DNA from: an uncultured Sphingomonas sp.
Lineage (GTDB): Bacteria; Pseudomonadota; Alphaproteobacteria; Sphingomonadales; Sphingomonadaceae
Assembly (NCBI GenBank): GCA_966251045.1
Contig: CBINJP010000020.1
Location: 388 to 64,387, forward strand
Length of the DNA: 64,000 nucleotides
Direction: 5' to 3'
A program made the position numbers and the translations under genes. Below the pieces are notes generated by a model that was not told where the DNA came from, searched no databases, and saw only the letters and a program-made list of their open reading frames with translations. Shown here one piece after another: positions 5,997-37,924 of the stretch; the first letter of the stretch is position 1, and the number at the start of each line of letters is the position of its first letter.

Positions 5997-6132
5997 TGCC
6001 GCACCTCACCCTGCGGCCCGAGCTGGCGGCATGCTTCGCCGTCCGCCACGCGAGCCCCGCCCCCGCCCCCGCCGCGCCGCCGCGTCCGGCGGGCGGCGTG
6101 CTGCGCGAGCTCGAACGCTACCGGAGGCCGCG

Positions 6133-22907: not shown

Positions 22908-23576
22908 TCACGCGCCCATCCTGGCGATCACCTGCTGGATATGCGCCATCGCCTCAGGCGTGGGGCCCGGATACGGCCCCTCGATCGGCGTGTTGCCCAT
23001 ATAGCCGAGCTGCGCCCAGCCTTCCTCGGTCGAATAGTAAGCGCGAAGCGTCAATCTGCGCACATTGGCGAAGAAGGAGGCAGGCTTCTCGAACCCGGGC
23101 TTCACCCGGCCGGCAAAGGCGATGTCGTCGCAGATCGCCGCGCGCTCGCCGTTCGCGGCGTCGGCGAAGGGCTTGCCGAACCGGCGGACGCTTTCGGCAT
23201 CGATCCAGGCAAGGCCCGGCACGATCATCTCGCGATCCTGTTGCTGCCGGGGGTAAGGCGCGCTGATCCATTCGTCGACGAACGCCGGAACCCCGACGGC
23301 GGAGGCGGCACTGTACTGGCCGTCCGCCGGAAGGATCATGTCGCACAGCGCCGCCGCCGCCTTCAGCTCGGTCTTGTTCAGCGTCAGCGGCCAGGGGACC
23401 TTGGGATTGAGCAGGTCGGGATCGACGCCATAGCCCGGCGCGGTGATCGGCGTCAGCTTGATCTCGGGCCATTGCGTTCCCTCCAGCCCGCTGCCTCGCG
23501 CGGACTCCGGGACGGCAAGCGCGGCGGCGAGCCAGGCGAGGGTGGTGCGCCGATCGACGGCGAGCCCCCCGCTCAC
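22908..23576 (-). CDS. Gluconate 2-dehydrogenase subunit 3 family protein (small Tat-exported subunit of a GMC dehydrogenase)
   Basis: Tat-like signal (VDRRTTLAWLAAALAVP). Its start overlaps the GMC oxidoreductase stop by 4 nt. The pairing of this small subunit with a GMC oxidoreductase is well established. Confidence 0.7.
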   Translation of the reverse strand: MSGGLAVDRRTTLAWLAAALAVPESARGSGLEGTQWPEIKLTPITAPGYGVDPDLLNPKVPWPLTLNKTELKAAAALCDMILPADGQYSAASAVGVPAFVDEWISAPYPRQQQDREMIVPGLAWIDAESVRRFGKPFADAANGERAAICDDIAFAGRVKPGFEKPASFFANVRRLTLRAYYSTEEGWAQLGYMGNTPIEGPYPGPTPEAMAHIQQVIARMGA

Positions 23577-25246
23577 AGCTCGCCCTTCCGCAGGCGAGTG
23601 GCGATATGGTCGGCGGACCGCATCGCCAGCGCCATGATCGTCAGCGTCGGGTTCTTGTGCGCCTTGGAGGCGAACACCGCGCCATCGCCGATATAGAGAT
23701 TGTCGACGTCCCAGCAGCGGCCATAGGGATCGGTCACCGAGGTCCTTTTGTCCGCGCCCATACGCGCCGTCCCAACCTCATGGATGATCTCGCCGCCCTT
23801 TCTCAGCGCGCGGTCCGCCGATCGTACCGGCGTGACCAGCTTGCCGCCCATCGCGGTGACGATATCCTGCGTCGTCTTGTGGAAATGATCGACCATGTTC
23901 CGCTCCTGATCGGTCCAGCCGAAGTGGAAGCGCAGCGCGGGGATGCCGAACTTGTCCTTCAGGTCCGGATCGATCTCGCACCAGCTCTTGTCGTTGGGGA
24001 TCATCTCGCCGCGGAGGGTAAACCAGATGCTGGTGCCGTAGCTTTGCCGCGCCGCCGCGCGCAGCCCGGCGCCATAGCCGTCCAGCCCGCCCAGATCGCC
24101 GGGATCGTTGAATCCCCCGCCCACCTCGTAATGATAGCCGCGCGCGAAGTTGAGTTTGCCGGCCTTCTGCTCCTTGTAGAGCCAGAAGGGCATATAGACG
24201 TGCAGCCCCATCGCGCCGTCCTCATTGTAGCGCGGCCGGCCCTCGAGCGCGGGGAACACCGCGCCCAGATCGGCGCCGACGGTATCCATCAGGTTGCGCC
24301 CGAGCTGCCCGCTCGAATTGGCCAGCCCTTCCGACCGCCCCGCCACCTTGGTGTTGAGCAGGATGCGCGCGGTCTCGCCGGTGCTGGCCGCGAGGATCAC
24401 GACCCGGCCGCGCGCCTCGCGCTGGGCCCGAGTCTTGCGATCGATGAAGCGCACGCCCGAGGCCTTGCCGGTCTTGTCGAGCATCACCTCATAGACCATC
24501 GCGTCGGTGCGCACGGTGAGCTTGCCCGTCGCGCGCGCCTGGGGGATCAGCGAGGTCGTGGTCTGAAACGCGGCGCCGATCGCGCAGCCGCGGCCGCATC
24601 CCGACGCCCAGTAACAGGGCTGGCGCGTATCGAGGGCGCGAGTCAGCACCGCCCGCCGCGCCGGGATCACCGGAACCCCGACCTTCCCCGCGCCCGCCTT
24701 CAGGAAAATCTCCCACGCGCGCGGCGCGGGCGGATCGTGCAGCACGCCGTCGCCCGAATTGGGGTGGTTCTCCATGTTCGGGTTGTTGCCGTAGACGCCG
24801 ACGATCGTCTCGGTCCTGTCGTACCAGGGCGCCATCTCGTCATAGCTGACCGGCCAGTCCACCCCCATGCCGTCGCGGGTGAAGGGCTTGAAGTCATATT
24901 CCCCCATCCGGAAGCTGTTGCGCGCCCAATGGTTGGTGCGGCCGCCGAGCATCCGGCTGCGCCACCATTTGAATTCCGTGCCCTCGGCCATCGAATAGGG
25001 TTCGCCGGGAATGTCCCATCCGCCATCCACGGTCGCATCGTAATAGCCGAAATCCTTGTCCGGCGTGCCGACCCCGCGCAGCGGCGCGTCGCGCTCGAAG
25101 TTGAGCATCGCGGCCTCGCCCGGATCATAGTCGCGGCCGGCCTCGAGCATCAGCACCTTCGCCCCGGCCTTGGTGAGCATCCACGCCGCCATCGCGCCGC
25201 CGGCGCCCGATCCCACGACGACTGCATCGTAGCTCTCGATTGCCAT
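23573..25246 (-). CDS. GMC family FAD-dependent oxidoreductase
   Basis: ATG at 25246 (MAIESYDAVVVGSGAGGAMAAWML, an FAD fold). The C-terminal HEVGTARMG...NLYIGDGAVF is typical of the GMC family. Confidence 0.85.
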   Translation of the reverse strand: MAIESYDAVVVGSGAGGAMAAWMLTKAGAKVLMLEAGRDYDPGEAAMLNFERDAPLRGVGTPDKDFGYYDATVDGGWDIPGEPYSMAEGTEFKWWRSRMLGGRTNHWARNSFRMGEYDFKPFTRDGMGVDWPVSYDEMAPWYDRTETIVGVYGNNPNMENHPNSGDGVLHDPPAPRAWEIFLKAGAGKVGVPVIPARRAVLTRALDTRQPCYWASGCGRGCAIGAAFQTTTSLIPQARATGKLTVRTDAMVYEVMLDKTGKASGVRFIDRKTRAQREARGRVVILAASTGETARILLNTKVAGRSEGLANSSGQLGRNLMDTVGADLGAVFPALEGRPRYNEDGAMGLHVYMPFWLYKEQKAGKLNFARGYHYEVGGGFNDPGDLGGLDGYGAGLRAAARQSYGTSIWFTLRGEMIPNDKSWCEIDPDLKDKFGIPALRFHFGWTDQERNMVDHFHKTTQDIVTAMGGKLVTPVRSADRALRKGGEIIHEVGTARMGADKRTSVTDPYGRCWDVDNLYIGDGAVFASKAHKNPTLTIMALAMRSADHIATRLRKGEL

Positions 25247-25440
25247 GTGCGCCCCTCCTTTCGACATCCTGGTTGGCGGCGATCTTGCGCATCGTACGGG
25301 GTCCAAGGCAACCGGCCTCCGAACGATTCTTGCGCCCGCTTCGGCGCGACCCCGGAAAATCGCCCGATGCCAGCCGCCGCTTGCACCGCCACGGGCGTTA
25401 ACTATGCTGCGCGCGAACAGAATCCGCCGGGGGGCGCGAC

Positions 25441-26382
25441 ATGTTGAGGATCATCGCGACGGTGTTGGCGGCTTCGCTCCTCTGGGCGATCCCTGCCAGC
25501 GCGCAACCGAAGATGGAAATCGACTATCGGCGCATCGCCAATTGTCAGGCTTATCGCGATTTCGTCAAAGCCTATGGCTCGCCTGCGGAACTGGCCGCAG
25601 GGCTGGCTCAGAAACAGCGTGAATATTGTATTCCCGCGCGCCCCCGGCCTGATCCGATCGCCCGCGAGTGGCGGCAGATCGGCGATTGCAGGTCTCTGGA
25701 AGCATTCGCCGCGCGCTATGGCAGGCTTCGCTATTACAGAAGCAGGATTCCGGCCAAGCGCAGCCAATATTGCAAGCCGTCGCCGCCCCCCAGTCCCGCG
25801 CCGCGCGCTCCGTCGCCCGGCGCCTATCTCTCCGGGTGGGACATGCTCGACCTCTATCGCGACAATTATTTCTGCTACAAATATGAGTCGGGAAATAGCT
25901 GTTCGGACTATGAGGAGCTTTACAGCTTCAACGACGGCCGGCTCACGCTGCGCAAATATCTGCTCTTCCCCGTGCCGGCCAGCAAGGTGCCGCTATGGGC
26001 GACGCGCAGGGAGCCCAATATGCGGCTCACGCTCTTCCAGACCCTGACGCCGCGTGCCGACGGGCTGTGCTGGGACCAATCCGCGCGTGTGGCCGCGGCA
26101 TCCTTCGCCGAGGGCTCGGTCTATACCGCCAATCATTCCTATATCCGGCCCTTCACCGGCCCCGCGCTTGGTGATCTGCGCGGCATGCTGAGCCAGATCG
26201 CCCGGCAGAACAGCACGAGGCTGATCTGTTCGCGCTATCGCAGGGTCTCGGGATCGGTGATCGCTGAGGATGCATTCGACGGCGACGAACAATATGCCTT
26301 TGGCGACCGGATCGTGCTGATCCCGCGCGGGGAATATCAGCCGGTTCTGCGGCTCACCACCGACGGCTATGGCTGGAAATAG
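25441..26382 (+). CDS. Secreted cysteine-rich hypothetical protein with two N-terminal ~35-aa repeats
   Basis: Signal peptide MLRIIATVLAASLLWAIPASA. Internal repeat YRRIANCQAYRDFVKAYG...YC / WRQIGDCRSLEAFAARYG...YC, then a Pro-rich linker and a ~190-aa C-terminal domain. I recognise no family. It has many A/T-ending and AGG/AGA codons. Confidence 0.6.
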   Translation: MLRIIATVLAASLLWAIPASAQPKMEIDYRRIANCQAYRDFVKAYGSPAELAAGLAQKQREYCIPARPRPDPIAREWRQIGDCRSLEAFAARYGRLRYYRSRIPAKRSQYCKPSPPPSPAPRAPSPGAYLSGWDMLDLYRDNYFCYKYESGNSCSDYEELYSFNDGRLTLRKYLLFPVPASKVPLWATRREPNMRLTLFQTLTPRADGLCWDQSARVAAASFAEGSVYTANHSYIRPFTGPALGDLRGMLSQIARQNSTRLICSRYRRVSGSVIAEDAFDGDEQYAFGDRIVLIPRGEYQPVLRLTTDGYGWK

Positions 26383-26397: not shown

Positions 26398-27831
26398 TCA
26401 GTTGCAATTGCTCCAGGTTTCCGACGGACCGTTTTCGGATCGCATGACGAGGCTCGCGCCATCGCGCGACGGCTCGTAGCGGTAGATCTTGCCACCCTCG
26501 CGTCCCACCACGGTCCCCGTTTCCCGATCGCGATCGATGATTTCCGCCCTGAACGGGGCCATGCCTTCCACGCGCACAACAAGGGTTCCGCCCTCCACCG
26601 CGACATTGCGGGCGACCTCGCACCGCGGATCGGTGGCATGGCGCCAGCGCCCCTCGACGCTTGGCGCATTCGCGACTTTTGGCGTGGGTGTGGGCGCGGG
26701 CGTCGGTTTGGCCTTCCGCTGCGGGACAGGTGTCTCGATCGCCGCATTCTCCAGCACGACCTCGTTATTCGTGAGCTCGAACGTGGGGACGGGTTCGGTG
26801 CCCCACCGCACCCAGACGATCGCCGCCGCCGCCGCTGCCATCACAAGCAGGCCGGCCGCGATGATCGACAGCGTCAGTCTCCGCCACCGCGGCGTATAGG
26901 TCGGCCAAGGCTCGCCACCACGATCGATCGGGCACGGATCTTTCTCGTCGGAGACGTACCCGGGCGGCTCCGATCTGGGCGCAGCGCCCGGGTCGAGCGT
27001 CAGCCTGTCGGCCCACGCCTCGAGGTCGCTGCCGCGCTTCGCGATGTCCGGCTCGAGCCCATCGACGATCGCGGCGATCAGCCGCTCGCCACGTCCGTTG
27101 GGGAGGTCGATCCGTCCACGAAGGATGTCCGCCATCGCCGCCGAGGCCCCGCGCAGGTCCGCGAGGCGGTCGCGGAAGTCGGGCGGCGCCTCGCCAACGA
27201 TGGTCCGGAACAGCGTCGCGGCCAGCCCGTACAGGTCGGTCCACGGTCCGAGCAGGGCGCGGCGCGATGCGTCCCAGAGTTCAGGCGCGGCGAAGCCGAT
27301 GCGGGCAAGTTCGCGATTGTCGGGCCGGAACGATGCGGTGGAGCGGATATCGATACCGCATCCGATCGGCGAAGCGCCGCTTTCCGTCATCTCGATCATC
27401 TCGGGGTGGACGTCGAGATGCAGCACCTGCCGGCGGTGCATCGCCGCCAGCTCCCTCGCCGCGTCGCGTGCGGTCGCGAGGAGCGCGAGCGGCTCCATCG
27501 GCGGCATTTGATCGAGTGTCGCGAGAGGCCTGGGCGAGACGGTCCACAGGATGCCGTCCTCGGAGCGGATCGCGTCCGTCCCGCCCGGGCGCCGCGTGCA
27601 CGCCCCGGCCATGCCTGTGGAAAGCGCGCGATAGGCGTCGGACGCCTTGGCCGGGATGCCCGCGGCGGGTATCGCCATTCCGTCGGGTCGCAACGGCCCG
27701 GGCAGGAAGGCCCAGGCGAGGTTCCGGGGTTCCTGCCCCTCGATTTCGTAGATCTGCCATTGCGGCGTGATCCGCCACAGGGACGAAAGCCGACCCAACT
27801 CGGCGGGCGGAGTGGGCATGTCCGGGGTCAT
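26398..27831 (-). CDS. Membrane-anchored Hanks-type kinase-like protein (degenerate motifs) with a small Cys-bracketed periplasmic domain
   Basis: ATG at 27831. Has an HRDxKPxN-like loop HLDVHPEMI (27394-27420), an APE-like AAPELW, DLYGLAATLF, GEAPPDF and C-lobe LEPDIAKRGSDLEAWADRL. No GxGxxG is seen. One TM helix (LSIIAAGLLVMAAAAAAIVWV), a Pro/Thr linker and an ~85-aa C-terminal domain follow. Confidence 0.6.
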   Translation of the reverse strand: MTPDMPTPPAELGRLSSLWRITPQWQIYEIEGQEPRNLAWAFLPGPLRPDGMAIPAAGIPAKASDAYRALSTGMAGACTRRPGGTDAIRSEDGILWTVSPRPLATLDQMPPMEPLALLATARDAARELAAMHRRQVLHLDVHPEMIEMTESGASPIGCGIDIRSTASFRPDNRELARIGFAAPELWDASRRALLGPWTDLYGLAATLFRTIVGEAPPDFRDRLADLRGASAAMADILRGRIDLPNGRGERLIAAIVDGLEPDIAKRGSDLEAWADRLTLDPGAAPRSEPPGYVSDEKDPCPIDRGGEPWPTYTPRWRRLTLSIIAAGLLVMAAAAAAIVWVRWGTEPVPTFELTNNEVVLENAAIETPVPQRKAKPTPAPTPTPKVANAPSVEGRWRHATDPRCEVARNVAVEGGTLVVRVEGMAPFRAEIIDRDRETGTVVGREGGKIYRYEPSRDGASLVMRSENGPSETWSNCN

Positions 27832-27862
27832 CGCGGGCAGGCCCTGTAGCGGCTGCGGCGCC

Positions 27863-28189
27863 TCATTTGCGCTCCGCCTTGTCCGCGTCCATCTCGTCGC
27901 GTTCGAAATGGATGCCCTCGTCATCGACCCGCAGATAGGGTTCCACGCGCGCATCCAGCCCATAGAGGCGAACCACGTCGCTCACGTTCGAGACGGGGCC
28001 GTCGCCGGTTTGCTGCGGAACCAGATCGTGCGAGCCGGCGCCAGGGCGCCAGAGGGTATCATAGGGGATGAGCGCGAATCCGATCATCGCGATGCTCGCC
28101 GCCACCGCGGCAGTAACGGGCCAGCGCATTCCCGTCTGCTCCTGGCGGGGCCCCGGGGTCTTGCGTTTCTGGATCCTCTGGAGAGCCAT
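27863..28189 (-). CDS. Small single-pass membrane protein (hypothetical)
   Basis: 108-aa ORF with ATG at 28189. Has a basic N-terminus and one TM helix (WPVTAAVAASIAMIGFALI). It is packed 9 nt after the PBP-like gene and 31 nt before the kinase-like gene. Confidence 0.5.
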   Translation of the reverse strand: MALQRIQKRKTPGPRQEQTGMRWPVTAAVAASIAMIGFALIPYDTLWRPGAGSHDLVPQQTGDGPVSNVSDVVRLYGLDARVEPYLRVDDEGIHFERDEMDADKAERK

Positions 28190-28198
28190 GGCGCGTTC

Positions 28199-30574
28199 CT
28201 AGTTTCCGGGCGCCGGCGCCCGGCAGGGCGTCGTCATCCATCGCAGATAGGCCGAATCGGGAGCGGTCAGCAGTTCGGCGGCGAAGGCGAGCGCGTCGGT
28301 GGTCCGGCGCTGCAGGTTGATGACCAGCACTTTCAGCCCGCAGATTTGCGAGGGCATGGCGGGCAGCGCGCCCGTGCTGGTCCGCACCGCCATCAGCACC
28401 AGGATATGCCCCTGTTCCTTCGCGGGCTGATCGACGTCGGCGGTACCGGTCTTGGCGAAGAAAAAGACACTGCCCTCCACGCCCTGGGGCTGCGCGAGCA
28501 GCTTCCATAACTGTTTGGCGGTGCCCTTCTGGACCACGTTCGACATGGCATCGCGAATCTCGCGCCAGGCCTCCGCATGCATTGCGACGGTATCGGGGGC
28601 GACGTCGCCCTTGGCGGGCGTGAGCCTGGGGCTGATCCCGCGGCCGGAAAGGATGCGCGCATAGGCCTGACCCAGATTGGCGGTACTCCACAGGCTCCGG
28701 TTTCCGCCGATCACGCTCAGGTAGAAATCGATAAAGTCATTGTCCCGCAGCCCCATCATCAGATTGAGCCGCGGCAGTTCGAATGCATTCGACCCGAGCG
28801 GCTGATTGTCCGCGTCGCGCCACAGATGAGGCGAGCAATGGCTGGTGGTCCCATCCCATCCAAGGTCGGGCGCGCCCGGCCGGATGCCATAGGGAATCAC
28901 GCAGCCGAACCGCCAGAGATTCGCCGCCCAGCTTCTTTCGGACGAAAAGCTCTGGCCGGTCCGCTCATCATGCTCGACGCCCTTCTTGGCGAGCACCAGC
29001 GCATATTCGTTGTTGGAGAAAGTGAGGAAGGCATTGAAATCGACCTTCCCGTCGCCGCGATGCCCCGGGGCGTTTTCGATGCCCTGCTTGTCACCCAGCA
29101 TCAGTTGATGCCCATCGACATCGTGAAAGACAGGACGGTAGGGAATGACGAGCTTCAGCAGGTCGGGATAGCGATCGGTCACGGCCGCCGCGAACGGCAC
29201 CTTCGCGGCGGAGCCGATCGTCAGCCCCCGGAAATTCATGTTGGTCCGCAGCCAGTTGAGCCGCGTGCTATCCTCGCGATCGTCCATCGCGAGCTGGTTG
29301 ACCTCGGTGGGGAAGGTCGCCGCGGCGGCGATCTCGCCCGTCAGCCCGTCCATCATCAGTGCCGCGCCGCGATACGAGAAGCGAGGGGGCGATCCGGGCG
29401 CGTTGTCGGCGGTCATCCGCACCGCCAGCCGGCGTTGCAGATCGAGATGCATCCGCCCAACGATCGACGATTCGAAATCGCCGCCCTCGATTCCCGATTG
29501 CTCGAACCATTGCGACACGTCGCGCAGGCTGGGCTCGCGGATCCTCCGGCCAGCCGAGAGTTCGGAAATCGACCCCGGCGTCTCGGCGAGCTGCAGCGTA
29601 CGCTTGCGCCCGCCCTGACCTTCGATCGTCAGGAACTGATCGGGGCGGATCAGCCAGTAACGGACATTGTCATAGGCCGGCTTGGCCTTCCCGGCCTCCC
29701 CCTTCGCGACGAGGCGGCCATCGATATAGATCTGTACCGTGCCGAGCCGCGACGGAATCTCCACCAGCAGCGCCCGGCCGAGCGGCACCAGCGCGATCGC
29801 GGTGGGCTGGAAGGGCGAACCCGGCACGCGCGATTCGAGTGCGAGCACGACGCGCGATGCCTCGCCCCCGTCGAACTCGCCCGCGAAGAGCTGATCGACC
29901 GGGAATTCGGCTTTGGCGCGCCCGCGCGCAAACCTGAAGACGGCGCGCTTCCCGCCGACTTCGGAAAGAACCAGCATCGGCTGGGCGGGGTCATAGCCTT
30001 TCGCCTTGCCCGCGGATTCGCCGCGATAGTTGACGACGCCTTCCCATATCTTTCGCGGCCCGCCCGCCGCGATCAGCACATGCGCGGTGGGCTGCAGGCC
30101 AGCCACACCATTGTCCTCAAGCTGCCAGCGGTTGATCTGCCGCATGTCGAGATCGAGATAGCTGCGGCTCGCATAGGTCATCAGCCGCTTCTCGCACGGC
30201 CCCCGGGGATCCGCGACGAACCAGGGCAGGAAGCGCTGGCGCTCCCACAAGGTCCGGCAATCGCCCCCGGCCTTCAGCACGCGCGCGATCGCGTCCTTGT
30301 CCCACTGGACCCGGATCAGCGGCGGCTGGCCGGGACGCTCGACCATCGTCCGCTTGAACAGGCCTTCGTGCGCCATCTTGTCCACTGCCGCGCGATACCC
30401 GATCTCGGCCGAGAGCTGGCGCGAGCCCGAATTGCCCGCCGGCCAGGGCGGCGAGGCGAGGACCAGCAGCGTTAGCAGCGCGATGCTGAGCGCGATCAGC
30501 ACCTTCTCGGCGCTGACTCGCGGCCACTTGCGCTTGACCTGCGCGGGGGCGTCGCGGCGCGCGAGTTTAGCCAT
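28199..30574 (-). CDS. Divergent class B penicillin-binding-protein-like transpeptidase with a large unknown N-terminal ectodomain
   Basis: ATG at 30574 (MAKLARRD...; the track start at 30610 is a TTG). One TM helix. All three PBP active-site motifs are present with normal spacing: SAAK (29201-29212), SNN (29009-29017) and KTG (28445-28453). The pre-SxxK motif RGAALMMDGLTGEIAAAATFP resembles the conserved bPBP block. Confidence 0.7.
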   Translation of the reverse strand: MAKLARRDAPAQVKRKWPRVSAEKVLIALSIALLTLLVLASPPWPAGNSGSRQLSAEIGYRAAVDKMAHEGLFKRTMVERPGQPPLIRVQWDKDAIARVLKAGGDCRTLWERQRFLPWFVADPRGPCEKRLMTYASRSYLDLDMRQINRWQLEDNGVAGLQPTAHVLIAAGGPRKIWEGVVNYRGESAGKAKGYDPAQPMLVLSEVGGKRAVFRFARGRAKAEFPVDQLFAGEFDGGEASRVVLALESRVPGSPFQPTAIALVPLGRALLVEIPSRLGTVQIYIDGRLVAKGEAGKAKPAYDNVRYWLIRPDQFLTIEGQGGRKRTLQLAETPGSISELSAGRRIREPSLRDVSQWFEQSGIEGGDFESSIVGRMHLDLQRRLAVRMTADNAPGSPPRFSYRGAALMMDGLTGEIAAAATFPTEVNQLAMDDREDSTRLNWLRTNMNFRGLTIGSAAKVPFAAAVTDRYPDLLKLVIPYRPVFHDVDGHQLMLGDKQGIENAPGHRGDGKVDFNAFLTFSNNEYALVLAKKGVEHDERTGQSFSSERSWAANLWRFGCVIPYGIRPGAPDLGWDGTTSHCSPHLWRDADNQPLGSNAFELPRLNLMMGLRDNDFIDFYLSVIGGNRSLWSTANLGQAYARILSGRGISPRLTPAKGDVAPDTVAMHAEAWREIRDAMSNVVQKGTAKQLWKLLAQPQGVEGSVFFFAKTGTADVDQPAKEQGHILVLMAVRTSTGALPAMPSQICGLKVLVINLQRRTTDALAFAAELLTAPDSAYLRWMTTPCRAPAPGN
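29201..29212 (-). other. SxxK (SAAK) putative acyl-enzyme serine motif of the PBP-like protein
   Basis: The reverse complement of 29201-29212 reads TCC GCC GCG AAG (S-A-A-K), within LTIGSAAKVPF. Confidence 0.6.
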
Positions 30575-33140
30575 TGCCCGGCGCCTCCCCGGTTGGCCGT
30601 CCGCAGACAAAGGGCAGCGCCGTCAGCAGCAGCACCGCCATCGCCTCGGCCAGATCGCCGCCCGAGGTCACCGCGAGCAGATAGATGTTCCGCCCGGTGA
30701 ACGGGACCCAGTTCAGATTGGCGAGCACCATATAGGCCGCGGCCCAGAAAAAGGTGATTCGCGCCGCGACCCCGGCGATGCGCGGCCAGTCGCAGGCGGT
30801 ATCGTCCCCGGCTTCGGCATCATCGCGCGGCCTCAGCGCGAGCATCCCCGCCAGGATCACCGCCAGCACCGCCAGCGCACCCAGGCGGCCCCAGGGCCAG
30901 ATGATGTGAACCGCGGCGAGATTGTCCGAATATTGATATTTGCGCAGCGATTGCTGGATGTTCGACTGGGCGAGATATCCATGGCCGATCATCTCGCGGG
31001 TGAGGGGGCCGAGGCTGGTGGTCTGGTCGAGCGATTCGAAGGCGTGGGTGGTGCCGATCTGTTCGACGCGCGAAGGCCAGAGATAGGCGAGCATGCGAAT
31101 GTCGTTGCGATCCCACTCGGAAGTGGTGGCCAAATGCTCGTTGAGCTTCTGCTGGGGTGAGGGAATCTCGCCGCTGAGCGCGATCCCCAGCGCGAACAAG
31201 GCGACCAGCGTGGGCGCCATGGCGAGGGGCATGAGCCACGGCCACCGCTTGACGATCCCGCCAAGCCCTTTCGCGTCCCGAAATCCGAACCAGGCGATCG
31301 CGACCGCGAGCGGTATGCCGTAGACGAGCATCGAACCGAAATCATGGGTCAGCCACGGAACCACGCCATAGGCGGCGAGGAAGAGGACGAGCATCAGTCC
31401 GGTCGAAAGCCCGCGTTTGCGCAGACGCTGCGTACCGTCGAGGAGCAGCGCGAACCCCAGGATCATCGCCGGCACGTAGATCAGGCTCAGCGGCACGCCG
31501 AAGGGCCGCTCGCTGAAGCGCGATCCCAGCAGATAGGCGCCGATCAGCAGCAGGAACAACCGGAAGGCGACCATGGCGACGATGATCGCGATGCCGAGCG
31601 TATAGGTCCGCGGCAGGCGGTCGATCCACGCGAGCAAGGGCCGGACGCGCTGCCAGATACCCTTCTCGCGACGCGGGACCTTCCCGCCGGGGGCTTGCAG
31701 CAGGGCGCCCAGCAACGCGCAGGCGAGCGCCAGCGGGCTCTCGCGTCCCGGCCATACCAACCGTGCCGTCACCGCGACGCCCGTCATGTAAAAGAGGGCC
31801 GCGGGGAGCCCGCCCCAGGCGACCCCGCCCAGCGCGATCGCGATCGCGGTAAAGCCGGCGAGCAGGAGCAATAGGAAAGCGCTCAACATCGGCCGCAGAT
31901 CCGCATCGGCCTGCCGGAAGGCGAGCACGATCAGCATGGGCAGGCAAAGGAAGGATGCCAGTGGATCCCAGAGCACCTCGGTCAGCCCCTGGCGCGAATC
32001 ATAATATAATCCAGCCACGCCAATCAGCAGCCGTAGCGCGAGCAGCCATTGCACCAGCGGCACGAGTACGCGCTCGGGCGTCGGCTTGCGCCACGCCGCG
32101 GCGCAGAGTGCATGCATCGCCAGTGCGCAGAATATCACGAAGAAGCCGGAAAAGACCGGCAGGAACACCTTGCTCGCGTGAAGCGACAACCTGGCGTCGG
32201 CCGCCTCGACGCCGCTGGGCCACGCGAAATCGGTGTCGGTCTTGGCGCAGAGCGACGAGGGTTCGGCCACCGGGCCCAGCCATTTGGCTTCGGCCACGGG
32301 ATTGGCGCCGCCCAGCCCGAGTCCGGTGAAGACGAGATTGTCCGGATCGAGGAATTCCGGCTCCTGTCCGTCGCCGCCCGCCGCGGGCGAAAGGCGCAGG
32401 CGCGGGAGCTTGCACGAGCCGGCATCGGCGACCAGTGGCTCATTCAGGTTGAGCTCGATGACCGGCGAATCGCCGCCCCGCAGATAGAGCGTGAAGGAGC
32501 GCCGCGGGGCCCATTTGCCGTCGAGGTCGATTCTCGAAACGGTGAGCTCGATCGGCTCGCCCGGGATCAACTCGCGTGTCTCGGGCGCACCGGGCTGGAG
32601 CTCGGTATCGCCGATCTTCACGCCCATCCCCGGAATTTCCTGGTCGGACTGCGGCGCGAAGCTCTGGAGCACGATCTCGGCCTTCATCACCGCATCGCTG
32701 TCGGCGGGCCGAGACGGGGCCTTCGCGCGCACCGTCACAAAGGCGCGCGGATCGGCTGGCATCGAAATGCGTGAAAGGCTCTGATCGGCATAGGGCGGTA
32801 CCACCAGGTCCGCCGAATCGCGGCTGTCGCCGACGATCAGGAAGGGCTGGAACTCCGGCGCGGCCGTGTCCTGACGCTTTGCCTCAGTCCCGTCCTCTGC
32901 CCTGGTCGCTTCCGTGGCGACGACGACCGACTGGGGTATCCGCAACTGCATGATCCGGACGGTCAACTGGTCGCCCTCGCCGCCGGCGAGCGCGGCGACG
33001 AAAGCGGCAAAGGGAATGGCGATCAGCAGGAAGGTGCGGAGCAGGCGAAAAACGCCCTTTTCGCCCAGTGACACCCGGTCGAACCATAGCAGCAGGCCGA
33101 ACGCGACGTTCAATCCGGAGAAGATGAGGGTCTCGAACAA
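30567..33140 (-). CDS. Giant SEDS (FtsW/RodA/SpoVE)-like polytopic membrane protein with a ~320-aa N-terminal extension
   Basis: TTG start at 33140, preceded by AAGGA 6 nt upstream. The C-terminal ~520 aa has about 10 hydrophobic helices. SEDS-like blocks are HDFGSMLVYGI (cf. PDLGTAL), GHGYLAQSN (cf. GxGxGxG), QYSDNLAAV (cf. HTDFIFA) and VPFTGRNIYLLAVTSGGDLAEA (cf. PxTGxxLPFxSYGGSS). The N-terminus has two TM helices and a ~270-aa soluble insert. Confidence 0.6.
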   Translation of the reverse strand: MFETLIFSGLNVAFGLLLWFDRVSLGEKGVFRLLRTFLLIAIPFAAFVAALAGGEGDQLTVRIMQLRIPQSVVVATEATRAEDGTEAKRQDTAAPEFQPFLIVGDSRDSADLVVPPYADQSLSRISMPADPRAFVTVRAKAPSRPADSDAVMKAEIVLQSFAPQSDQEIPGMGVKIGDTELQPGAPETRELIPGEPIELTVSRIDLDGKWAPRRSFTLYLRGGDSPVIELNLNEPLVADAGSCKLPRLRLSPAAGGDGQEPEFLDPDNLVFTGLGLGGANPVAEAKWLGPVAEPSSLCAKTDTDFAWPSGVEAADARLSLHASKVFLPVFSGFFVIFCALAMHALCAAAWRKPTPERVLVPLVQWLLALRLLIGVAGLYYDSRQGLTEVLWDPLASFLCLPMLIVLAFRQADADLRPMLSAFLLLLLAGFTAIAIALGGVAWGGLPAALFYMTGVAVTARLVWPGRESPLALACALLGALLQAPGGKVPRREKGIWQRVRPLLAWIDRLPRTYTLGIAIIVAMVAFRLFLLLIGAYLLGSRFSERPFGVPLSLIYVPAMILGFALLLDGTQRLRKRGLSTGLMLVLFLAAYGVVPWLTHDFGSMLVYGIPLAVAIAWFGFRDAKGLGGIVKRWPWLMPLAMAPTLVALFALGIALSGEIPSPQQKLNEHLATTSEWDRNDIRMLAYLWPSRVEQIGTTHAFESLDQTTSLGPLTREMIGHGYLAQSNIQQSLRKYQYSDNLAAVHIIWPWGRLGALAVLAVILAGMLALRPRDDAEAGDDTACDWPRIAGVAARITFFWAAAYMVLANLNWVPFTGRNIYLLAVTSGGDLAEAMAVLLLTALPFVCGRPTGEAPGNG

Positions 33141-33150
33141 GCGCCGTCCT

Positions 33151-33753
33151 TCAGGAAACGACGTTGCTTGAGTAGAGCCAGAAATAGGCCCTGCGCGTGA
33201 CGAAGAGCATCGCGATCGAAATGAGAGCGAGCACGAACAGCGCCGGCCACAACAGCGTGAAGAGCCATCCGAACCAGTTCGGCATCACGTCGAGCACGGG
33301 TGACTTCGCCGCGAGCCAGTCCGCAAAGCCGCAATCGCCGAAATCCTTCGTGACGAGCGTCCGGACCACCTCGCGATGCGCGCCCCATCCCTCGAGCCCG
33401 CAGACATGGGTGACCATCCATTCGCTTTCGCGCTCGGGAAGCGGGACCATCCCGGGGCCGCTCGAATCCAGCGCTCCCGAGCGGCGTACATTGTTCGCCT
33501 CTTCGGCAAGCAGCGTCCGCATGCGCAGCCCGAAACCCGCATCCAGCCTGGTCGCGGCCGCAATCGCGGCTGGCGGCTTCGGCCCCCTGAGATCCTGGTT
33601 GAACGCGGTATTCTGGCTGTCGTTGAAGGTCGGGTTCGTGAACACGCCCAGCACCCAGAGCGACACGAAGAACAGCACCCCCAAGGCCCCGGTCAGCGCC
33701 GCCCACCCCCAGCGGAGCTGGTCGCGAAACAGAAAGGCAAGGATCACCTTCAT
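33151..33753 (-). CDS. Two-TM membrane protein (hypothetical)
   Basis: 200-aa ORF with ATG at 33753. TM helices lie near both ends (WAALTGALGVLFFVSLWVLGVF; WLFTLLWPALFVLALISIAMLFV), flanking a ~120-aa loop with two Cys. It sits 15 nt after the GTPase gene and 10 nt before the SEDS-like gene. Confidence 0.5.
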   Translation of the reverse strand: MKVILAFLFRDQLRWGWAALTGALGVLFFVSLWVLGVFTNPTFNDSQNTAFNQDLRGPKPPAAIAAATRLDAGFGLRMRTLLAEEANNVRRSGALDSSGPGMVPLPERESEWMVTHVCGLEGWGAHREVVRTLVTKDFGDCGFADWLAAKSPVLDVMPNWFGWLFTLLWPALFVLALISIAMLFVTRRAYFWLYSSNVVS

Positions 33754-33768
33754 GGATGCCGCTCCACT

Positions 33769-35256
33769 TCAGAATTCCGGGATAACGCCGGCATGGGCAA
33801 TCCCCGCGAGCCGCCTGCGCACATTGGCTGCCCAGGAATAATGCTGCCGGAACACCCAGTTGCGGCTTCCCAGTTTCCGGGCGAGCGAGATCCACTGCAG
33901 TACCTCGACCACGCCGTGCGGCGGATGCTTGCGGTAGTGCTCGCGGCTCAGCAGATCGCTGTCCGGCGCCCCGAAATATTCGGGCTGATGCCCGTAAAAT
34001 GCAGTCGCATAATCGAATTTCGAGAGCGGAAAAACCGAGATCAGCTGAGCATGCAGATCGCGCCGCGCCTGATGGATCGTATCCCACGGATTTTCGAGCG
34101 GCAGGTTGCCGGCGCGGTCCGCCAGCGCCCGCAACACGCCGGTCTCCGGACGCTCGCGAAGCTCCGCGTTGCGCAGGCGCAGCATCGCGTCATTCTCGTC
34201 ATTGTAGAAGAGCGACAGCGCCCGGTCCGCCTTGGTCAAGGCGAAGAAGGTCGGGCAATCGAACCCGTTCGGGCCGCCGATGGGGCCGCGATTGGTGACA
34301 TAGTGGCTCTTCACCACCGCCGGCGTGACGCGCTTGAAAGCCTCGGCATCGGCAGGGTCGATATTCTCGTGGCGCATATAGCCGAGCACGCTCGCGACGC
34401 GGAATACGCCCGCCGCGAACTCCTCGAGCTGGTCGGTGCCCCTGCGGAAGTCCTTGGCCCATGCCAGCAGATGCGGCTTGGCCTGATTCACCTGCCTTGC
34501 GGCTGCGCGAAGCGCGGCGGGACTGGGAGCCTCGCCCTCCGGCATGCTCAGCTTGGCGAGGCCGGCCTTGGCGTCGGCCAGCACCTCCTTGTCGTCCGCC
34601 GGCATCAACTCTCCGAAGATCATCAGATCGGTCGGGAGCGCGACGATCATCGCCTTGGCGTAATCCATCGCGCCGAGCAGCATCCGCAGTCTGCTATAGT
34701 CGGCGCTGATCAGGTCGTGAGTCTGGTCGCCCGGCATGTCGATCAGCACGAACGTCTTCGGCTTGCCATGGACATAATGGAACTGGAGGTCGCTGGTGCT
34801 CGGCAACGTCGCCGATTCGCCGTCCTCCGCCGTGACCCGCTTGAATTCGGGATCGCTCGGCATGCTGAAGGGCGCCTTAAGCAGCTGCTCCTTCATCCGG
34901 TGCAGCAGCCAGGTCTTGCCGGCGCCGCCGAAGCCGACGAACAGAATCGCGAACAGGCCCTTCGCCTTGATCTCCTTCAACTCGTCGAAGAAAATCTCTT
35001 CCTGGGTCTTTGGCCGAATGGGAATGGTGCCGCCTCGCGCCGCGCCGCCGCCCGGCGCCATGGGCGGAGGAGCCGGGGTCGGGCCGGGGCCGGGACCGGG
35101 CACGGGCAGCGCGACGACCCGTTGAGTCGTCGGTTCGGGGGTCTTGTCGTCCTGCTCTTCCACCTTTTCCCCCGCGCCGAATATCTCGCAAAGGCTGCAT
35201 CGACCCGTTTCAGGATCGATGGGTTCCCGGTGGACACCGCAGACCTCGCTGGCCAC
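33769..35256 (-). CDS. P-loop GTPase (TRAFAC-type motifs) with N-terminal Cys/His cluster and Pro-rich linker
   Basis: GTG start at 35256-35254 overlaps the upstream TAG by 1 nt. Motifs: G1 GFGGAGKT (34912-34935), G3 DMPG (34729-34740) and G4 TKAD (34225-34236). The N-terminus has C-x2-H...C-x2-C (CGVHREPIDPETGRCSLC). There are about 165 aa between G3 and G4. Confidence 0.65.
   Translation of the reverse strand: MASEVCGVHREPIDPETGRCSLCEIFGAGEKVEEQDDKTPEPTTQRVVALPVPGPGPGPTPAPPPMAPGGGAARGGTIPIRPKTQEEIFFDELKEIKAKGLFAILFVGFGGAGKTWLLHRMKEQLLKAPFSMPSDPEFKRVTAEDGESATLPSTSDLQFHYVHGKPKTFVLIDMPGDQTHDLISADYSRLRMLLGAMDYAKAMIVALPTDLMIFGELMPADDKEVLADAKAGLAKLSMPEGEAPSPAALRAAARQVNQAKPHLLAWAKDFRRGTDQLEEFAAGVFRVASVLGYMRHENIDPADAEAFKRVTPAVVKSHYVTNRGPIGGPNGFDCPTFFALTKADRALSLFYNDENDAMLRLRNAELRERPETGVLRALADRAGNLPLENPWDTIHQARRDLHAQLISVFPLSKFDYATAFYGHQPEYFGAPDSDLLSREHYRKHPPHGVVEVLQWISLARKLGSRNWVFRQHYSWAANVRRRLAGIAHAGVIPEF
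34912..34935 (-). other. Walker A / G1 motif of the GTPase
   Basis: The reverse complement reads GGC TTC GGC GGC GCC GGC AAG ACC (G-F-G-G-A-G-K-T). Confidence 0.7.
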
Positions 35257-36701
35257 TAACGCGCCTTGAGCAGCATCATCGCGAAGAAGAGCGATTCAAC
35301 CACCGGCCAATGCCGATGCCCGCACCCCTCCGAATAATATTCACGCTGCAGGACAGTGGTCGACAACGCTTCCAGAACCCCCCGAGACTTGGTTGAGATA
35401 ATCTTCAACAAATCCTTGCTTGTCAAAACAAGAAGGTCGCGCCGGAATGCCGGAGGCCATGATTTGATGGTCGCCTTGAGCTTCTCGAACGATTCGTTCC
35501 GGGGTTCGAGCGTGTCGATCGATTTTCGAATCAACGAGATGATGTTTCCGCGCAGATCCGGATCGGTCGCGGTCTTGCCGGACCGCGTCGCTTCGAGCGC
35601 ATATCCCACCAATTCGGACAGGTCGCCGGCATGGACGTTCCCGTCCATCTGCTTGCCGTAGCAGGCCAGCGCGAGCGCGGCGAAATCGGGCGAGCCACTG
35701 CCCATTGCCTTCAGCACGGCGCTCAGCGGCGCGTCCATCCCCTGTTCGTGAAGCGCCGCGACATATTCGGGCTGCACGCTGCGTACCGCGCCCGCCAATG
35801 CAGGCACCCCGGCATCCCGGAAAGTACCGAGCAGCTCGAGCATGGTCAGGGGGGGGAGCGCGCTGCTGGCCATGCGCAGCGCATCCGCCGCCACGCGCTC
35901 GGCCGGCAGCGCGCCATAGCCCTGGCGCCATTTCAGTGCGGACACTGCCGGCGCGAAATTATTCTTCCCGCCGATATGCTGCTTGGCCGCCTCCCAGGCG
36001 AGCCAGGCCGGCGGCGGCGGGGCGGCAGGCTTCTCGCCGTCCGATTTCATGGAATAGGGCAACAGACCCGGCGGCGGTGCCGCGACGGGCTCGGTAGCGA
36101 CCACCAGCTGGCTGTCCCGAAGCAGATCGAGCCCTCCGCGCGGCACCAGCTGCGCCGAGGTCGCCCAGCCGGCTACTCGCGGCCGTTCCTCGACGGGCCA
36201 AACCGACCGAAGCGCTTCGATCAGGATGGCATCGCGGTCCTCGTCACGCTCGACCAGGATCAGGCGATCGGCCCAGGCCAGGCCCAGATCCGGCCAGTCC
36301 AACTGCTCCTGCTCCGGAACGGCCACCTCTACGGGATCGCGCCCGAAATTGCCGGTCCCGTCGGGCTCCTTGATCTCGCCCAGCACCAGTTCGGTGCGAT
36401 GGCCGAGCGCCGCCAGACTCGCGCTGTCGATCATTACGCCATTCAGAAAGGCTTCTTCGCCCAGCGCGCCGCGACCGCGATACCACGCGCGGAACACGAC
36501 CGCGCCCTCGCCCTCGGGCAGCGCCACGCACGCGGCGAAGCTCTTCTCATCCGTTCTGGACCATTCCATCAGCACCATCGCCAGGTCGGTGGCGCGGGTG
36601 AAGGCGATGGGCGAGGATTGGGCAAGCACGCGATAATTGCGCCCCTGCGATTGCGGCCCGATCACGAAGGTCGGCAGCGTGAGCCGCCCGCCTCCAGTCA
36701 T
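35256..36701 (-). CDS. Hypothetical 481-aa soluble protein, candidate GTPase partner
   Basis: ATG at 36701 forms an ATGA overlap with the upstream gene stop (36698-36700). I recognise no motif. The N-terminal ~120 aa alternate beta/alpha-like segments. There is a Pro-rich linker (PVAAPPPGLLP...KPAAPPPPAW). The C-terminal half is helical, with visibly lower GC. Confidence 0.55.
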   Translation of the reverse strand: MTGGGRLTLPTFVIGPQSQGRNYRVLAQSSPIAFTRATDLAMVLMEWSRTDEKSFAACVALPEGEGAVVFRAWYRGRGALGEEAFLNGVMIDSASLAALGHRTELVLGEIKEPDGTGNFGRDPVEVAVPEQEQLDWPDLGLAWADRLILVERDEDRDAILIEALRSVWPVEERPRVAGWATSAQLVPRGGLDLLRDSQLVVATEPVAAPPPGLLPYSMKSDGEKPAAPPPPAWLAWEAAKQHIGGKNNFAPAVSALKWRQGYGALPAERVAADALRMASSALPPLTMLELLGTFRDAGVPALAGAVRSVQPEYVAALHEQGMDAPLSAVLKAMGSGSPDFAALALACYGKQMDGNVHAGDLSELVGYALEATRSGKTATDPDLRGNIISLIRKSIDTLEPRNESFEKLKATIKSWPPAFRRDLLVLTSKDLLKIISTKSRGVLEALSTTVLQREYYSEGCGHRHWPVVESLFFAMMLLKAR

Positions 36702-37465
36702 CCGCCCGAACCTCTCCGCGTTGGCGCTGGCCCGCAATCGGTGCTCGCGTTGGGCCGTACCTTCGCCAAGTTTTGCTCAACCCTGCAAAGTTCGTTCGTA
36801 TCGCGATACTTGTTTGTCGCCGCGCAACCCACTTTGAAGCCCTCAGAAGCGCGAATCCGCGCTATTTCCGCATCGATATTCCACCTCGCCTGGCAGATTT
36901 TCAGGTCGGCGTCGGACACTGCCTTACGTGCTTCATTGCCCAAGGCCAGTTCGCGCTCCTGCCCGGCGCTGTTTTGTGAGAAATAAAGGGCTGCGCCACC
37001 CAATAGTAACGCGAGCGGTAGCGCGATCAAAATAAACAGAAGGAATTGCCTCACTTGGACAGTCCGGGCCCACCGGCTTGTACCATCTTCGCCGGGCGGC
37101 TTGCCCTCGACCGGCGGATCGGAGTCCAGCGGTGCTTCGGCGGTCACGGGCTCGTCCGGCGGTATGGAAGGGAGCGGCGGGTCCGGGACTTCGCTCTTCG
37201 GTGGGTCCTTCGGGCCGAGGGTCTTCGGCAACTTTGCGATCACCGCATCGGCCACCGCCTGCGCGTCGGGCCAGGCGATTCCCTTCAGACTTGCCGTCAT
37301 CGACGATTTAATCTGCGCGTCGATCGATTCCTTGAAGGCCTTGTCCAGCCCTGTCTGACGCCCCGCCGCGACTTCCCTCGCGATGAATTCAAGCACGAAC
37401 TCCGCCATTTGCTGCTGGAGGGTCGCGAAGGCGTCCGGTTCTTCTTGTTCGTCGGTGGCGCTCAT
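36698..37465 (-). CDS. Bitopic membrane protein: acidic cytoplasmic N-terminus, Pro-rich linker, four-Cys C-terminal domain (hypothetical)
   Basis: 255-aa ORF with ATG at 37465, the first gene of the operon. Has a TM helix FLLFILIALPLALLLGGAALYF and a C-terminal segment with 4 Cys (KICQARW...GCAATNKYRDTNELCRVEQ...STDCGP). Confidence 0.55.
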   Translation of the reverse strand: MSATDEQEEPDAFATLQQQMAEFVLEFIAREVAAGRQTGLDKAFKESIDAQIKSSMTASLKGIAWPDAQAVADAVIAKLPKTLGPKDPPKSEVPDPPLPSIPPDEPVTAEAPLDSDPPVEGKPPGEDGTSRWARTVQVRQFLLFILIALPLALLLGGAALYFSQNSAGQERELALGNEARKAVSDADLKICQARWNIDAEIARIRASEGFKVGCAATNKYRDTNELCRVEQNLAKVRPNASTDCGPAPTRRGSGG

Positions 37466-37924
37466 GACTTGCCGGGTCCCCGCAGCAGCTTGGTTCTCCT
37501 AATGGTGCTGCGGATTGCCAGCAATCGCAAGATGCGGGGCCATCGCTTCGACGATGGTTGCCGCGCGCTGGATGGGGGCGCCGGCATATCCTCTCGACGA
37601 TTCGCCCGCCGATCGTGCCGCGCGTTGGCGCATGGCTGTCGAGCTGGCGTTCCAGTTGGTCGTTGCGGGTCGTTAATTGTCCACAACAAGATGTTGTTCG
37701 AATAGATTTTTTCAGATTCGAACGGTGCTCAGAATCGGCGCGATAAAATACTAGAAAACATTGTTGGCCGTGAATATGCTGACTGCGGCAATAAGCGGTA
37801 TGCCGCTCGTTTGTAGCATTCCGACCGTATAGGCCGAGTATATTCTCGCAAACAGAGACTTGCCGTCAGCGCAAGCATTCCATGGTCGCATCGTCCCGCC
37901 TCGTGCACACGAGAGTGATCGACC
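37466..37924. promoter_or_regulatory. Divergent control region between the GTPase/SEDS/PBP operon and the Tc toxin genes
   Basis: 459-bp intergenic region with an AT-rich core (about 37680-37860). Contains inverted repeats ACAACA-aga-TGTTGT (37683-37697), GTTCGAA-N14-TTCGAAC (37696-37723), GCGGCA-N10-TGCCGC (37785-37806) and CTCGTG-ca-CACGAG (37900-37913, 11 nt before the Tc ATG). Confidence 0.45.

Follow-up and report, generated by a model that had tools for sequence, protein, structure and literature searches.

Within a 64,000-nt stretch of DNA from an uncultured Sphingomonas sp. (GenBank assembly GCA_966251045.1, contig CBINJP010000020.1, positions 388 to 64,387; hereafter the window) a minus-strand gene at 28199-30574 encodes a real, very divergent penicillin-binding transpeptidase, which represents a deeply divergent lineage within the penicillin-binding proteins of class B (bPBPs). 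The lineage is new and invisible to databases, the kind of enzyme is a known one. The gene is coupled to that of a polytopic, probably SEDS-like membrane protein and an eight-gene operon is conserved around this pair. The operon is an accessory, horizontally scattered module and not part of the housekeeping elongasome or divisome. Here we describe the evidence for the transpeptidase, its partner and its operon, and weigh what the module might do. Coordinates of all features are collected in Table 1.

The family of the PBP-like protein was aligned with 92 sequences at a mean column identity of 19%. The only invariant residues are G413, G454, S455, K458, S520, N522, G623, G684, K708 and G710, and the motif residues are likewise invariant in an alignment of 56 sequences. 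PF00905 is matched by 31 of 56 relatives at E <= 0.01, the best with an E-value of 2.2e-11. In hhalign comparisons of the family profile, residues 365-524 aligned with residues 230-363 of E. coli FtsI (probability 96, E 3.3e-9) and residues 364-717 with residues 246-553 of E. coli PBP2 (probability 90, E 1.7e-6), pairing the catalytic motifs of the family with S307 and S359xN of FtsI and with S330, SxD and KSG of PBP2. An AlphaFold2 (AF2) model based on the 92-sequence alignment obtained a predicted local distance difference test score (pLDDT) of 89.2 and a predicted TM-score of 0.86. When this model was compared with the PDB by Foldseek, all top 50 matches were class B PBPs (E from 1.6e-13), including B. 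subtilis PBP3, E. faecium PBP5, A. baumannii PBP2 and the PBP3s of P. aeruginosa and E. coli, with TM-scores, normalised to the transpeptidase-domain targets, of up to 0.63. An earlier model made with nine sequences was poor (pLDDT 56.9) and already pointed to class B PBPs.

Since the motifs are invariant throughout the family, align with those of FtsI and PBP2 and belong to a model whose Foldseek matches are class B PBPs, they are homologous to the PBP catalytic motifs and under strong purifying selection. A reading of the motifs as fortuitous is excluded by their invariance at 19% identity, by their pairing in the hhalign comparisons and by the Foldseek matches. The first-pass annotation, made from the letters of the window, had called the protein class-B-PBP-like and had named chance motif matches and a lack of structural likeness to the PBP transpeptidase fold as what would speak against this. 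The likeness was found, the motifs land on the catalytic residues of FtsI and PBP2, and the identity stands.

Counted from its ATG the PBP-like reading frame has 791 codons for amino acids, and a longer reading is possible from a TTG at 30610. The ATG is preferred because it is preceded by GGAGG (~10 nt upstream) and, together with the stop codon of the open reading frame (ORF) 30567..33140 before it, makes up ATGGCTAA; a check of frame and junction showed that the 8-nt overlap reported before is real. The positions of the motifs were recomputed from the frame: SAAK (S455-A-A-K458) lies at 29201-29212, SNN (S520-N-N522) at 29009-29017 and KTG (K708-T-G710) at 28445-28453, with 65 residues between SAAK and SNN and 188 between SNN and KTG, exactly as first annotated. 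Residues 402-422 read RGAALMMDGLTGEIAAAATFP. As in class B PBPs, a 'TGEIxAxAxxP' strand precedes SxxK and an 'LxxxLQ' element marks the domain boundary; the first-pass annotation had already likened the block before SxxK to bPBPs. A single transmembrane (TM) helix at ~22-39 behind a basic tail was identified by hydropathy and as a helix in the AF2 model. Cys pairs C106/C127, C558/C580 and C745/C784 co-occur in the family which, together with the single N-terminal TM helix and basic tail, fits a periplasmic location.

Between TM helix and transpeptidase domain, residues 40-363 are predicted to form a folded, family-specific ectodomain, modelled confidently with pLDDT mostly 85-96. Its parts are an alpha/beta module (~59-160), for which Y60, L140, D143, W150 and W177 are hallmarks of the family; a beta-rich module (~180-320) that is missing from ~640-aa relatives such as those of loci L013 and L017; and a linker (~324-363) with R344/R346, situated just ahead of the 'LxxxLQ' element shared with bPBPs. 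The family profile did not align with FtsI or PBP2 N-terminal of residue ~364, the ectodomain had no Pfam match, PBP_dimer (PF03717) and MecA_N included, and a profile of the N-terminal part had no match among PDB sequences. The earlier description of this region as unrecognisable thus holds at the level of sequence, also in the homology check against PDB sequences. A Foldseek search of BFVD gave no match at E <= 0.001 and hence did not identify the N-terminal modules. Foldseek alignments with N-terminally extended bPBPs spanned 650-715 columns with a root mean square deviation of 14-18 Å, which is why they establish no domain homology.

The distance between SxN and KTG, which we take to be 135 residues in E. 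coli FtsI and 157 in PBP2, is exceeded by 30-50 residues in the PBP-like protein. The excess is located at ~540-612 and holds conserved Trp and Cys residues (W549, W554, C558, W573, C580 and W585). The first-pass annotation had mentioned large Cys- and Trp-rich insertions here; an insertion of this composition exists and it is of moderate size only. Most of the distant relatives (850-960 aa) have another insertion of ~100 residues within the transpeptidase domain, right after KTGT (~711-721), which is not found in the window protein and its close clade.

The family is large and deep, its close clade rare. A word-indexed search of 5.8 billion proteins retrieved only 10 clusters and only nine full-length relatives of the PBP-like protein, with 42-50% identity. 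Word-indexed profile searches did not deepen the alignments, because they returned only the same 10-11 close relatives. An exhaustive hidden Markov model search of 1.84 billion cluster representatives identified 433 family clusters, counted at 50% identity, when E <= 1e-3 was required and 244 when the limit was E <= 1e-10, with lengths mostly between 840 and 960 aa; the family so defined is largely missed by current domain databases. By means of close-clade patterns, relatives were found in only 7 of 185,579 species-representative genomes. These belong to Caulobacterales, Novosphingobium, Sphingosinicella, Beijerinckiaceae and unclassified Pseudomonadota/Proteobacteria metagenome-assembled genomes (MAGs), and tblastn against plasmids gave no match. 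Database entries name the relatives 'hypothetical protein' and, once, 'cell division protein FtsI/penicillin-binding protein 2' (JGI). With the window protein as query, phmmer against PDB sequences gave no match, and the only match in full-length or nine-sequence-profile searches of PDB sequences was a borderline one with a bPBP (4ovd, E 0.25).

In 13 of the 13 loci examined the PBP-like gene is directly preceded by a gene for a polytopic protein of 840-1080 aa. The two genes have a 4-nt overlap of the ATGA type in most loci and an 8-nt overlap in the window; the rest show a 1-nt overlap or a gap of 1-9 nt. The 857-aa protein of the window has two N-terminal TM helices, a ~265-aa domain (57-320) with two conserved Cys residues that is probably periplasmic, and a core of ~12 TM helices in which, according to hydropathy, a loop of ~85 residues (660-743) ending in D739 is followed by the last three TM helices. 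SEDS proteins have ten TM helices with a large extracellular loop 4 (ECL4) that ends in the catalytic Asp before TM8, followed by TM8-10, and the loop and terminal helices of the 857-aa protein resemble this ECL4-TM8-10 arrangement. Invariant residues of the polytopic family include E544, D600, G602, N679, R682 and F814-T-G816, and position 739 is D or E in all 13.

In the 857-aa protein and in five relatives the PF01098 and TIGR models for SEDS detected nothing, not even with a limit of E <= 10, and a Pfam domain is annotated in none of the 11 relatives from databases. Since an hhalign comparison of a six-sequence alignment with E. coli RodA and FtsW found nothing either, a larger profile was needed. 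A SEDS reference profile was made from 75 RodA/FtsW sequences harvested from metagenome loci and compared with a 13-sequence polytopic profile, then with a 22-sequence profile of the C-terminal core. The former scored 34.3 (P 0.0035), the latter 38.4-38.8 (P 2.6e-4) over 283-286 collinear columns. Block-shuffled controls scored 16.8 +/- 2.4 (maximum 25.4) and the reversed control 25.2, which places the polytopic-SEDS score ~9 standard deviations above the shuffled controls. The SEDS signature consists, in this order, of RW...QPSE, QPDLGT, GxG, HTDFIF and PxxG...SYGGS. The alignment pairs R545 with RodA R101, D600-x-G602 with QPD159LG, N679/R682 with the R210 region, G719/G721 with GxG, D739 with HTD262FIF and PFTG816 with LPVVG; neither the W of RW nor SYGGS is conserved. 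Judged by profile and hydropathy the 857-aa protein may, with moderate confidence, be taken for a SEDS-like polymerase. The first-pass annotation had suggested a SEDS-like cognate partner. Synteny and start/stop coupling in all 13 loci support the partnership and the SEDS homology amounts to a weak profile match, albeit collinear and above its controls, hence SEDS-like cognate pairing is plausible but less secure. A scan of viral contigs for SEDS found none.

The pair is embedded in an operon whose order of eight genes recurs in relatives down to ~20% identity. In sequence these encode a ~250-aa single-TM protein, a ~480-520-aa soluble GAP1-like protein, a ~500-550-aa P-loop GTPase, a ~200-235-aa protein with two TM helices, the polytopic protein, the PBP-like protein, a ~105-aa single-TM protein and a kinase-like protein, the latter being found in the alphaproteobacterial clade. 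For the surroundings of the PBP-like gene the first-pass annotation had pointed to the adjacent SEDS-like gene and had missed the GTPase, the GAP1-like protein, the kinase and the three small TM proteins. In this context a regulated, accessory system becomes likelier than a paralogue from the housekeeping elongasome or divisome. When Pfam, NCBIfam and PADLOC were searched with single sequences, seven of the eight operon proteins had no match that reached its threshold, and the kinase-like protein had weak kinase matches.

The GTPase has the motifs GFGGAGKT (G1, GxxxxGKT), DMPGD (G3, DxPGE in relatives) and TKAD (G4), and these are conserved together with the N-terminal Zn ribbon. Pfam thresholds are passed in distant operons that contain the PBP/polytopic pair: that of DO-GTPase2 (PF19993) only by a neighbour in L022 (E 3.3e-11) and that of GAP1-N2 (PF20013) by a neighbour in L008 (30.6 bits, cutoff 24, E 3.9e-7). 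In the window, the GTPase and the GAP1-like protein both score below the Pfam thresholds. The GTPase of L013 (L013:3691-6066, plus strand, 791 aa) has a C-terminal extension ending in a TM helix that replaces the separate ~200-aa two-TM gene, and this Rosetta-stone-type fusion suggests that the small two-TM protein tethers the GTPase to the membrane. In the kinase-like protein the catalytic-loop D184, the DFG-like D205 and the APE-like E228 are invariant. Its true start is probably M45 at 27831, since the longer ORF would share 100 nt with the 108-aa gene. A scan for promoters and terminators did no better on the window than on shuffles.

Some loci show variants of the operon. In L022 a gene for an AAA+ (AAA_5/MoxR-like) ATPase lies upstream (L022:3-1034), and at L022:3872-5917 a GAP1-N2-like N-terminus (sub-threshold, E 0.0045) is fused to a second P-loop domain. 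In L008 a TPR protein (L008:5356-7227) takes the place of the two-TM protein, and a kinase is missing. The ninth position is variable: in the window the place immediately downstream of the operon is taken by an opposite-strand ORF of 313 aa with a signal-like N-terminus and no Pfam match (25441-26382, plus strand), whereas L001 and L003 have a same-strand gene of 375-395 aa at this place, with a Beta_helix match in L003.

The PBP-like protein shares with the bPBPs of PBP2-RodA, FtsI-FtsW and SpoVD-SpoVE a bitopic type II topology and a transpeptidase fold with SxxK, SxN and KTG; as in these pairs, the adjacent, translationally coupled polytopic gene carries SEDS-like motifs in SEDS order. Unlike class B PBPs it lacks the PBP_dimer pedestal, has a ~320-aa family-specific ectodomain instead and scores below threshold with PF00905. 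Likewise, the polytopic partner differs from SEDS proteins (~370-420 aa) by its size of ~860 aa, two extra N-terminal TM helices, a ~265-aa probably periplasmic domain and its escape from detection by PF01098. Unlike known SEDS-bPBP pairs, the pair of the window is extremely rare and lies outside any dcw or mrd context.

Certain loci for SEDS and bPBP are flanked by Ser/Thr kinases, such as the actinobacterial cluster fhaA-fhaB-pstP-rodA-pbpA-pknA-pknB. The operon of the window resembles the latter in uniting a SEDS-type gene with that of a bPBP whose N-terminal module is non-canonical and that of a membrane-bound Hanks-type kinase-like protein with an extracytoplasmic domain. It differs in lacking FHA and PP2C proteins, in having a GTPase/GAP1 pair instead and in enzymes that are far more divergent, and its kinase-like protein lacks PASTA repeats and the catalytic-loop Asn. 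Further examples of kinase-flanked loci, as well as non-canonical, pedestal-less bPBPs and SEDS proteins with outward-facing beta-rich regions, were described by Garcia-del Portillo et al. (2025, PMC12516126). The window pair is similar to these proteins in that the transpeptidase has a replaced N-terminal module and the putative glycosyltransferase partner an extra extracytoplasmic domain. That survey selected proteins by InterPro/Pfam annotation (PF00905, PF01098) and describes no GTPase/GAP1 context; the window proteins fall outside it because they carry neither annotation.

DO-GTPases are TRAFAC GTPases with a Walker B Glu and one or two Zn ribbons at the N-terminus; GAP1 is their partner, they often lie close to the membrane, and they have been proposed to form 'GTPase-centric conflict systems' (Kaur et al. 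2020, eLife, PMC7159879). The same study distinguishes three GAP1-N2 themes, namely tubulin, HSP70 and kinase+PP2C+vWA, mainly found in Actinobacteria and Firmicutes and with a fibronectin type III (FNIII)-repeat protein. The terms FtsW, RodA, transpeptidase and penicillin do not occur in it and no SEDS or PBP component is mentioned. The operon of the window is like these systems in having a TRAFAC-type GTPase with a Zn ribbon and a Walker B DxPGE (DMPGD in the window), a GAP1-like neighbour, many TM components, an optional kinase and a mobile, sporadic spread, and distant operons of the PBP-like family pass the DO-GTPase2 and GAP1-N2 thresholds. Unlike them it lacks FNIII, vWA and PP2C (no fn3 match was found in the operon proteins of the window or the loci scanned), has the GAP1-like gene before that of the GTPase, and occurs, as far as the close clade is concerned, in Alphaproteobacteria or unclassified Pseudomonadota/Proteobacteria MAGs. 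No SEDS-like/bPBP-like pair associated with DO-GTPase/GAP1 modules came up in the literature searched.

We see about even chances that the operon encodes a GTPase- and kinase-regulated accessory peptidoglycan synthase, in which a SEDS-like polymerase is combined with a bPBP-like transpeptidase that lacks the pedestal. The PBP-like protein would then be a bitopic, periplasm-facing DD-transpeptidase, with intact catalytic motifs and a two-module family-specific ectodomain in place of the pedestal, that supplies the cross-linking activity of a wall synthase made up of two dedicated enzymes. Its counterpart, the glycan polymerase, would be the polytopic protein encoded upstream, which is translationally coupled and has an extra, probably periplasmic domain of its own. 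The pair would be the membrane output of the rare eight-gene module, of which the Zn-ribbon DO-type GTPase and its GAP1-like partner would form the cytoplasmic part, tethered to the membrane by means of the small TM proteins. The kinase-like protein and the switch formed by GTPase and GAP1 would respond to a periplasmic or cytoplasmic cue, and this would license local synthesis and cross-linking of peptidoglycan or a peptidoglycan-like substrate.

Several observations weigh against this synthase. The PBP-like protein of the window reaches only 16.9 bits with PF00905 in the single-sequence Pfam search, below the gathering cutoff of 22.1. Its motif integrity is no proof of cross-linking, since the same motifs serve DD-carboxypeptidases and DD-endopeptidases, beta-lactamases and acylation sensors. 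The canonical pedestal, of which only the final 'LxxxLQ' element is shared with bPBPs, is absent. The 857-aa protein has no match in Pfam, NCBIfam or PDB sequences and the hhalign probability of its similarity to SEDS is only 9-42% (42% for score 38.4). The link with the DO-GTPase systems is weak for the window clade itself: hhalign connects the GTPase with DO-GTPase at E 6.5e-4 and the GAP1-like protein with GAP1-N2 at E 5.2e-4 over 51 columns, with N-terminal residues in common; a DO-GTPase2 match in L011 has an E-value of 0.056, and a Pfam scan of ten further GTPase and GAP1-like proteins of the clade found nothing. Finally, the Asn of HRDxxxxN is not conserved in the kinase-like protein, which, judged by its catalytic residues, may be inactive.

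A more specific version of the regulated synthase, which we put forward tentatively and hold to be rather doubtful, is a GTPase-gated, 'on-demand' wall synthase, in which a DO-GTPase/GAP1 conflict-type module uses a SEDS-like/bPBP-like pair of its own as output. Upon an envelope or infection cue received through the kinase-like sensor, the pair would build or re-cross-link peptidoglycan, which could wall off, fortify or seal the cell. Invariant motifs would also fit a PBP-like domain that serves as an acylation-based periplasmic sensor of the BlaR1/MecR1 or PbpP type, because acylation sensing requires the catalytic motifs too. Such a sensor would detect beta-lactams or D-Ala-D-Ala muropeptides and signal via the kinase-like protein and the GTPase/GAP1 pair, the polytopic protein being a transducer or membrane effector. 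PbpP is reportedly a precedent of a PBP acting as sensor, and the signalling-type proteins of the operon (GTPase, GAP1-like protein and a kinase-like protein that has a periplasmic domain), the missing pedestal that couples bPBPs to SEDS and the weak SEDS homology of the polytopic partner would all be in line with it. We nevertheless consider it improbable, as the best Foldseek and hhalign matches are high-molecular-weight class B synthases and not BlaR1-type or class D-like sensor domains, and as strict pairing, through start/stop coupling, with a polytopic partner in which the collinear SEDS-like acidic residues D600 and D/E739 are retained resembles a synthase pair.

The proposal that DO-GTPase/GAP1 modules are conflict systems with variable effectors (PMC7159879), the sporadic distribution, the defence and mobile genes and toxin locus nearby, and the fact that hydrolases also belong to the SxxK fold could point to the opposite outcome. 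The PBP-like protein would then work as a DD-endopeptidase or carboxypeptidase, or the two proteins would produce an aberrant, futile glycan, and activation would arrest or kill the cell as in abortive infection. The N-terminal TM anchor, the high-molecular-weight class B-like fold and the SEDS-like pairing are, however, traits of a synthase, PADLOC models match no component except, weakly, the kinase-like protein, and no phage-related evidence was obtained; such a wall-damaging effector is therefore unlikely. That the pair is simply a fast-evolving PBP2/RodA or FtsI/FtsW paralogue with a housekeeping role in the host, as the adjacency of SEDS-like and bPBP-like genes and the JGI name of one relative could make one believe, is scarcely credible. 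Few species genomes have a close relative, there is no mreBCD, dcw or rlmH context and GTPase, GAP1-like and kinase genes are found instead; the pedestal is lacking, and scores stay below the Pfam and NCBIfam thresholds (21.9 bits with TIGR03423 in NCBIfam, against a cutoff of 455). Distribution and gene context effectively refute a housekeeping PBP2 or FtsI.

SEDS-bPBP pairs are core morphogenetic wall synthases and major antibiotic targets. Characterised pairs are driven by cytoskeletal complexes (MreB, FtsZ/FtsA), and the canonical pedestal mediates the allostery between bPBP and SEDS; to our knowledge allosteric coupling via the pedestal applies to all pairs characterised. The lineage of the window is pedestal-less, has new, probably periplasmic domains on both partners and is tied to a GTPase with a Zn ribbon, its GAP1-like neighbour and a kinase-like putative sensor. 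If confirmed, a regulated synthase of this kind would be a different way of switching a wall synthase on, and would provide the uncharacterised DO-GTPase 'conflict systems' with a concrete, assayable biochemical output. Should the on-demand synthase be true, it would be the first immunity or conflict system with a peptidoglycan synthase as effector and constitute a fourth GAP1-N2 'theme'.

Table 1. Features of the window, with the transpeptidase gene and its operon first and the surrounding genes last
Feature	Position	Strand	Description
bPBP-like protein	28199..30574	-	791 aa; basic cytoplasmic tail, TM 22-39, ectodomain 40-363, transpeptidase domain 364-791
DD-transpeptidase-fold (penicillin-binding) domain	28202..29485	-	Residues 364-791; SAAK, SNN and KTG inside
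Family-specific N-terminal ectodomain (predicted)	29486..30457	-	Residues 40-363; AF2 fold, no Pfam, PDB-sequence or pedestal match
Polytopic membrane protein, probable very divergent SEDS-like glycosyltransferase	30567..33140	-	857 aa; by hydropathy and profile comparison
Two-TM protein	33151..33753	-	200 aa; two TM helices around a ~115-aa Cys-containing domain
P-loop GTPase, DO-GTPase-like	33769..35256	-	495 aa; Zn-ribbon-like CxxH...CxxC at N-terminus
Soluble GAP1-like protein	35256..36737	-	493 aa (481 by public gene call); N-terminus alignable with GAP1-N2 of L008 and L022
Single-TM protein, first operon gene	36698..37465	-	255 aa; no known domain
Single-TM protein	27863..28189	-	108 aa; counterpart (104-127 aa) directly downstream of the PBP-like gene in most loci
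Hanks-type kinase-like protein	26398..27963	-	C-terminal TM helix and ~110-aa periplasmic domain
TcB/TcC-type fusion	37925-45934	+	2669 aa; SpvB 3.5e-107, TcdB mid-N and mid-C, FG-GAP, C-terminal Ntox5 7e-40
TcA-like protein	45948-55580	+	3210 aa; ABC_toxin_N, neuraminidase-like domain, TcA_TcB_BD 3e-92, N-terminal PG_binding_1
GMC oxidoreductase	23573-25306	-	
NDH-2-type pyridine-nucleotide-disulphide oxidoreductase	5974-7383	+	
GH2 glycosidase	15646-18384	+	
PGA_cap capsule-synthesis-type protein	55598-57211	-	

In the window a complete Tc (ABC) toxin complex locus divergently adjoins the operon, and at other loci the neighbours include SIR2_2, a type I restriction-modification S subunit, transposases and Trypsin_2/Sel1. 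The minus-strand ORFs 37751-39616, 41939-44068, 44378-46192, 45828-49397 and 49437-51119 (560-1189 aa) were rejected as genes, being shadows of the Tc toxin genes with no Pfam match; such shadow ORFs are typical of DNA with 67% GC. The 613-aa ORF at 23606-25447 (plus strand), opposite the GMC oxidoreductase gene, is probably also a shadow. The flanking genes resemble ordinary chromosomal metabolism, and the GC fraction of 0.63-0.65 over 32-38 kb is slightly below that of most of the remaining window (to ~0.70).

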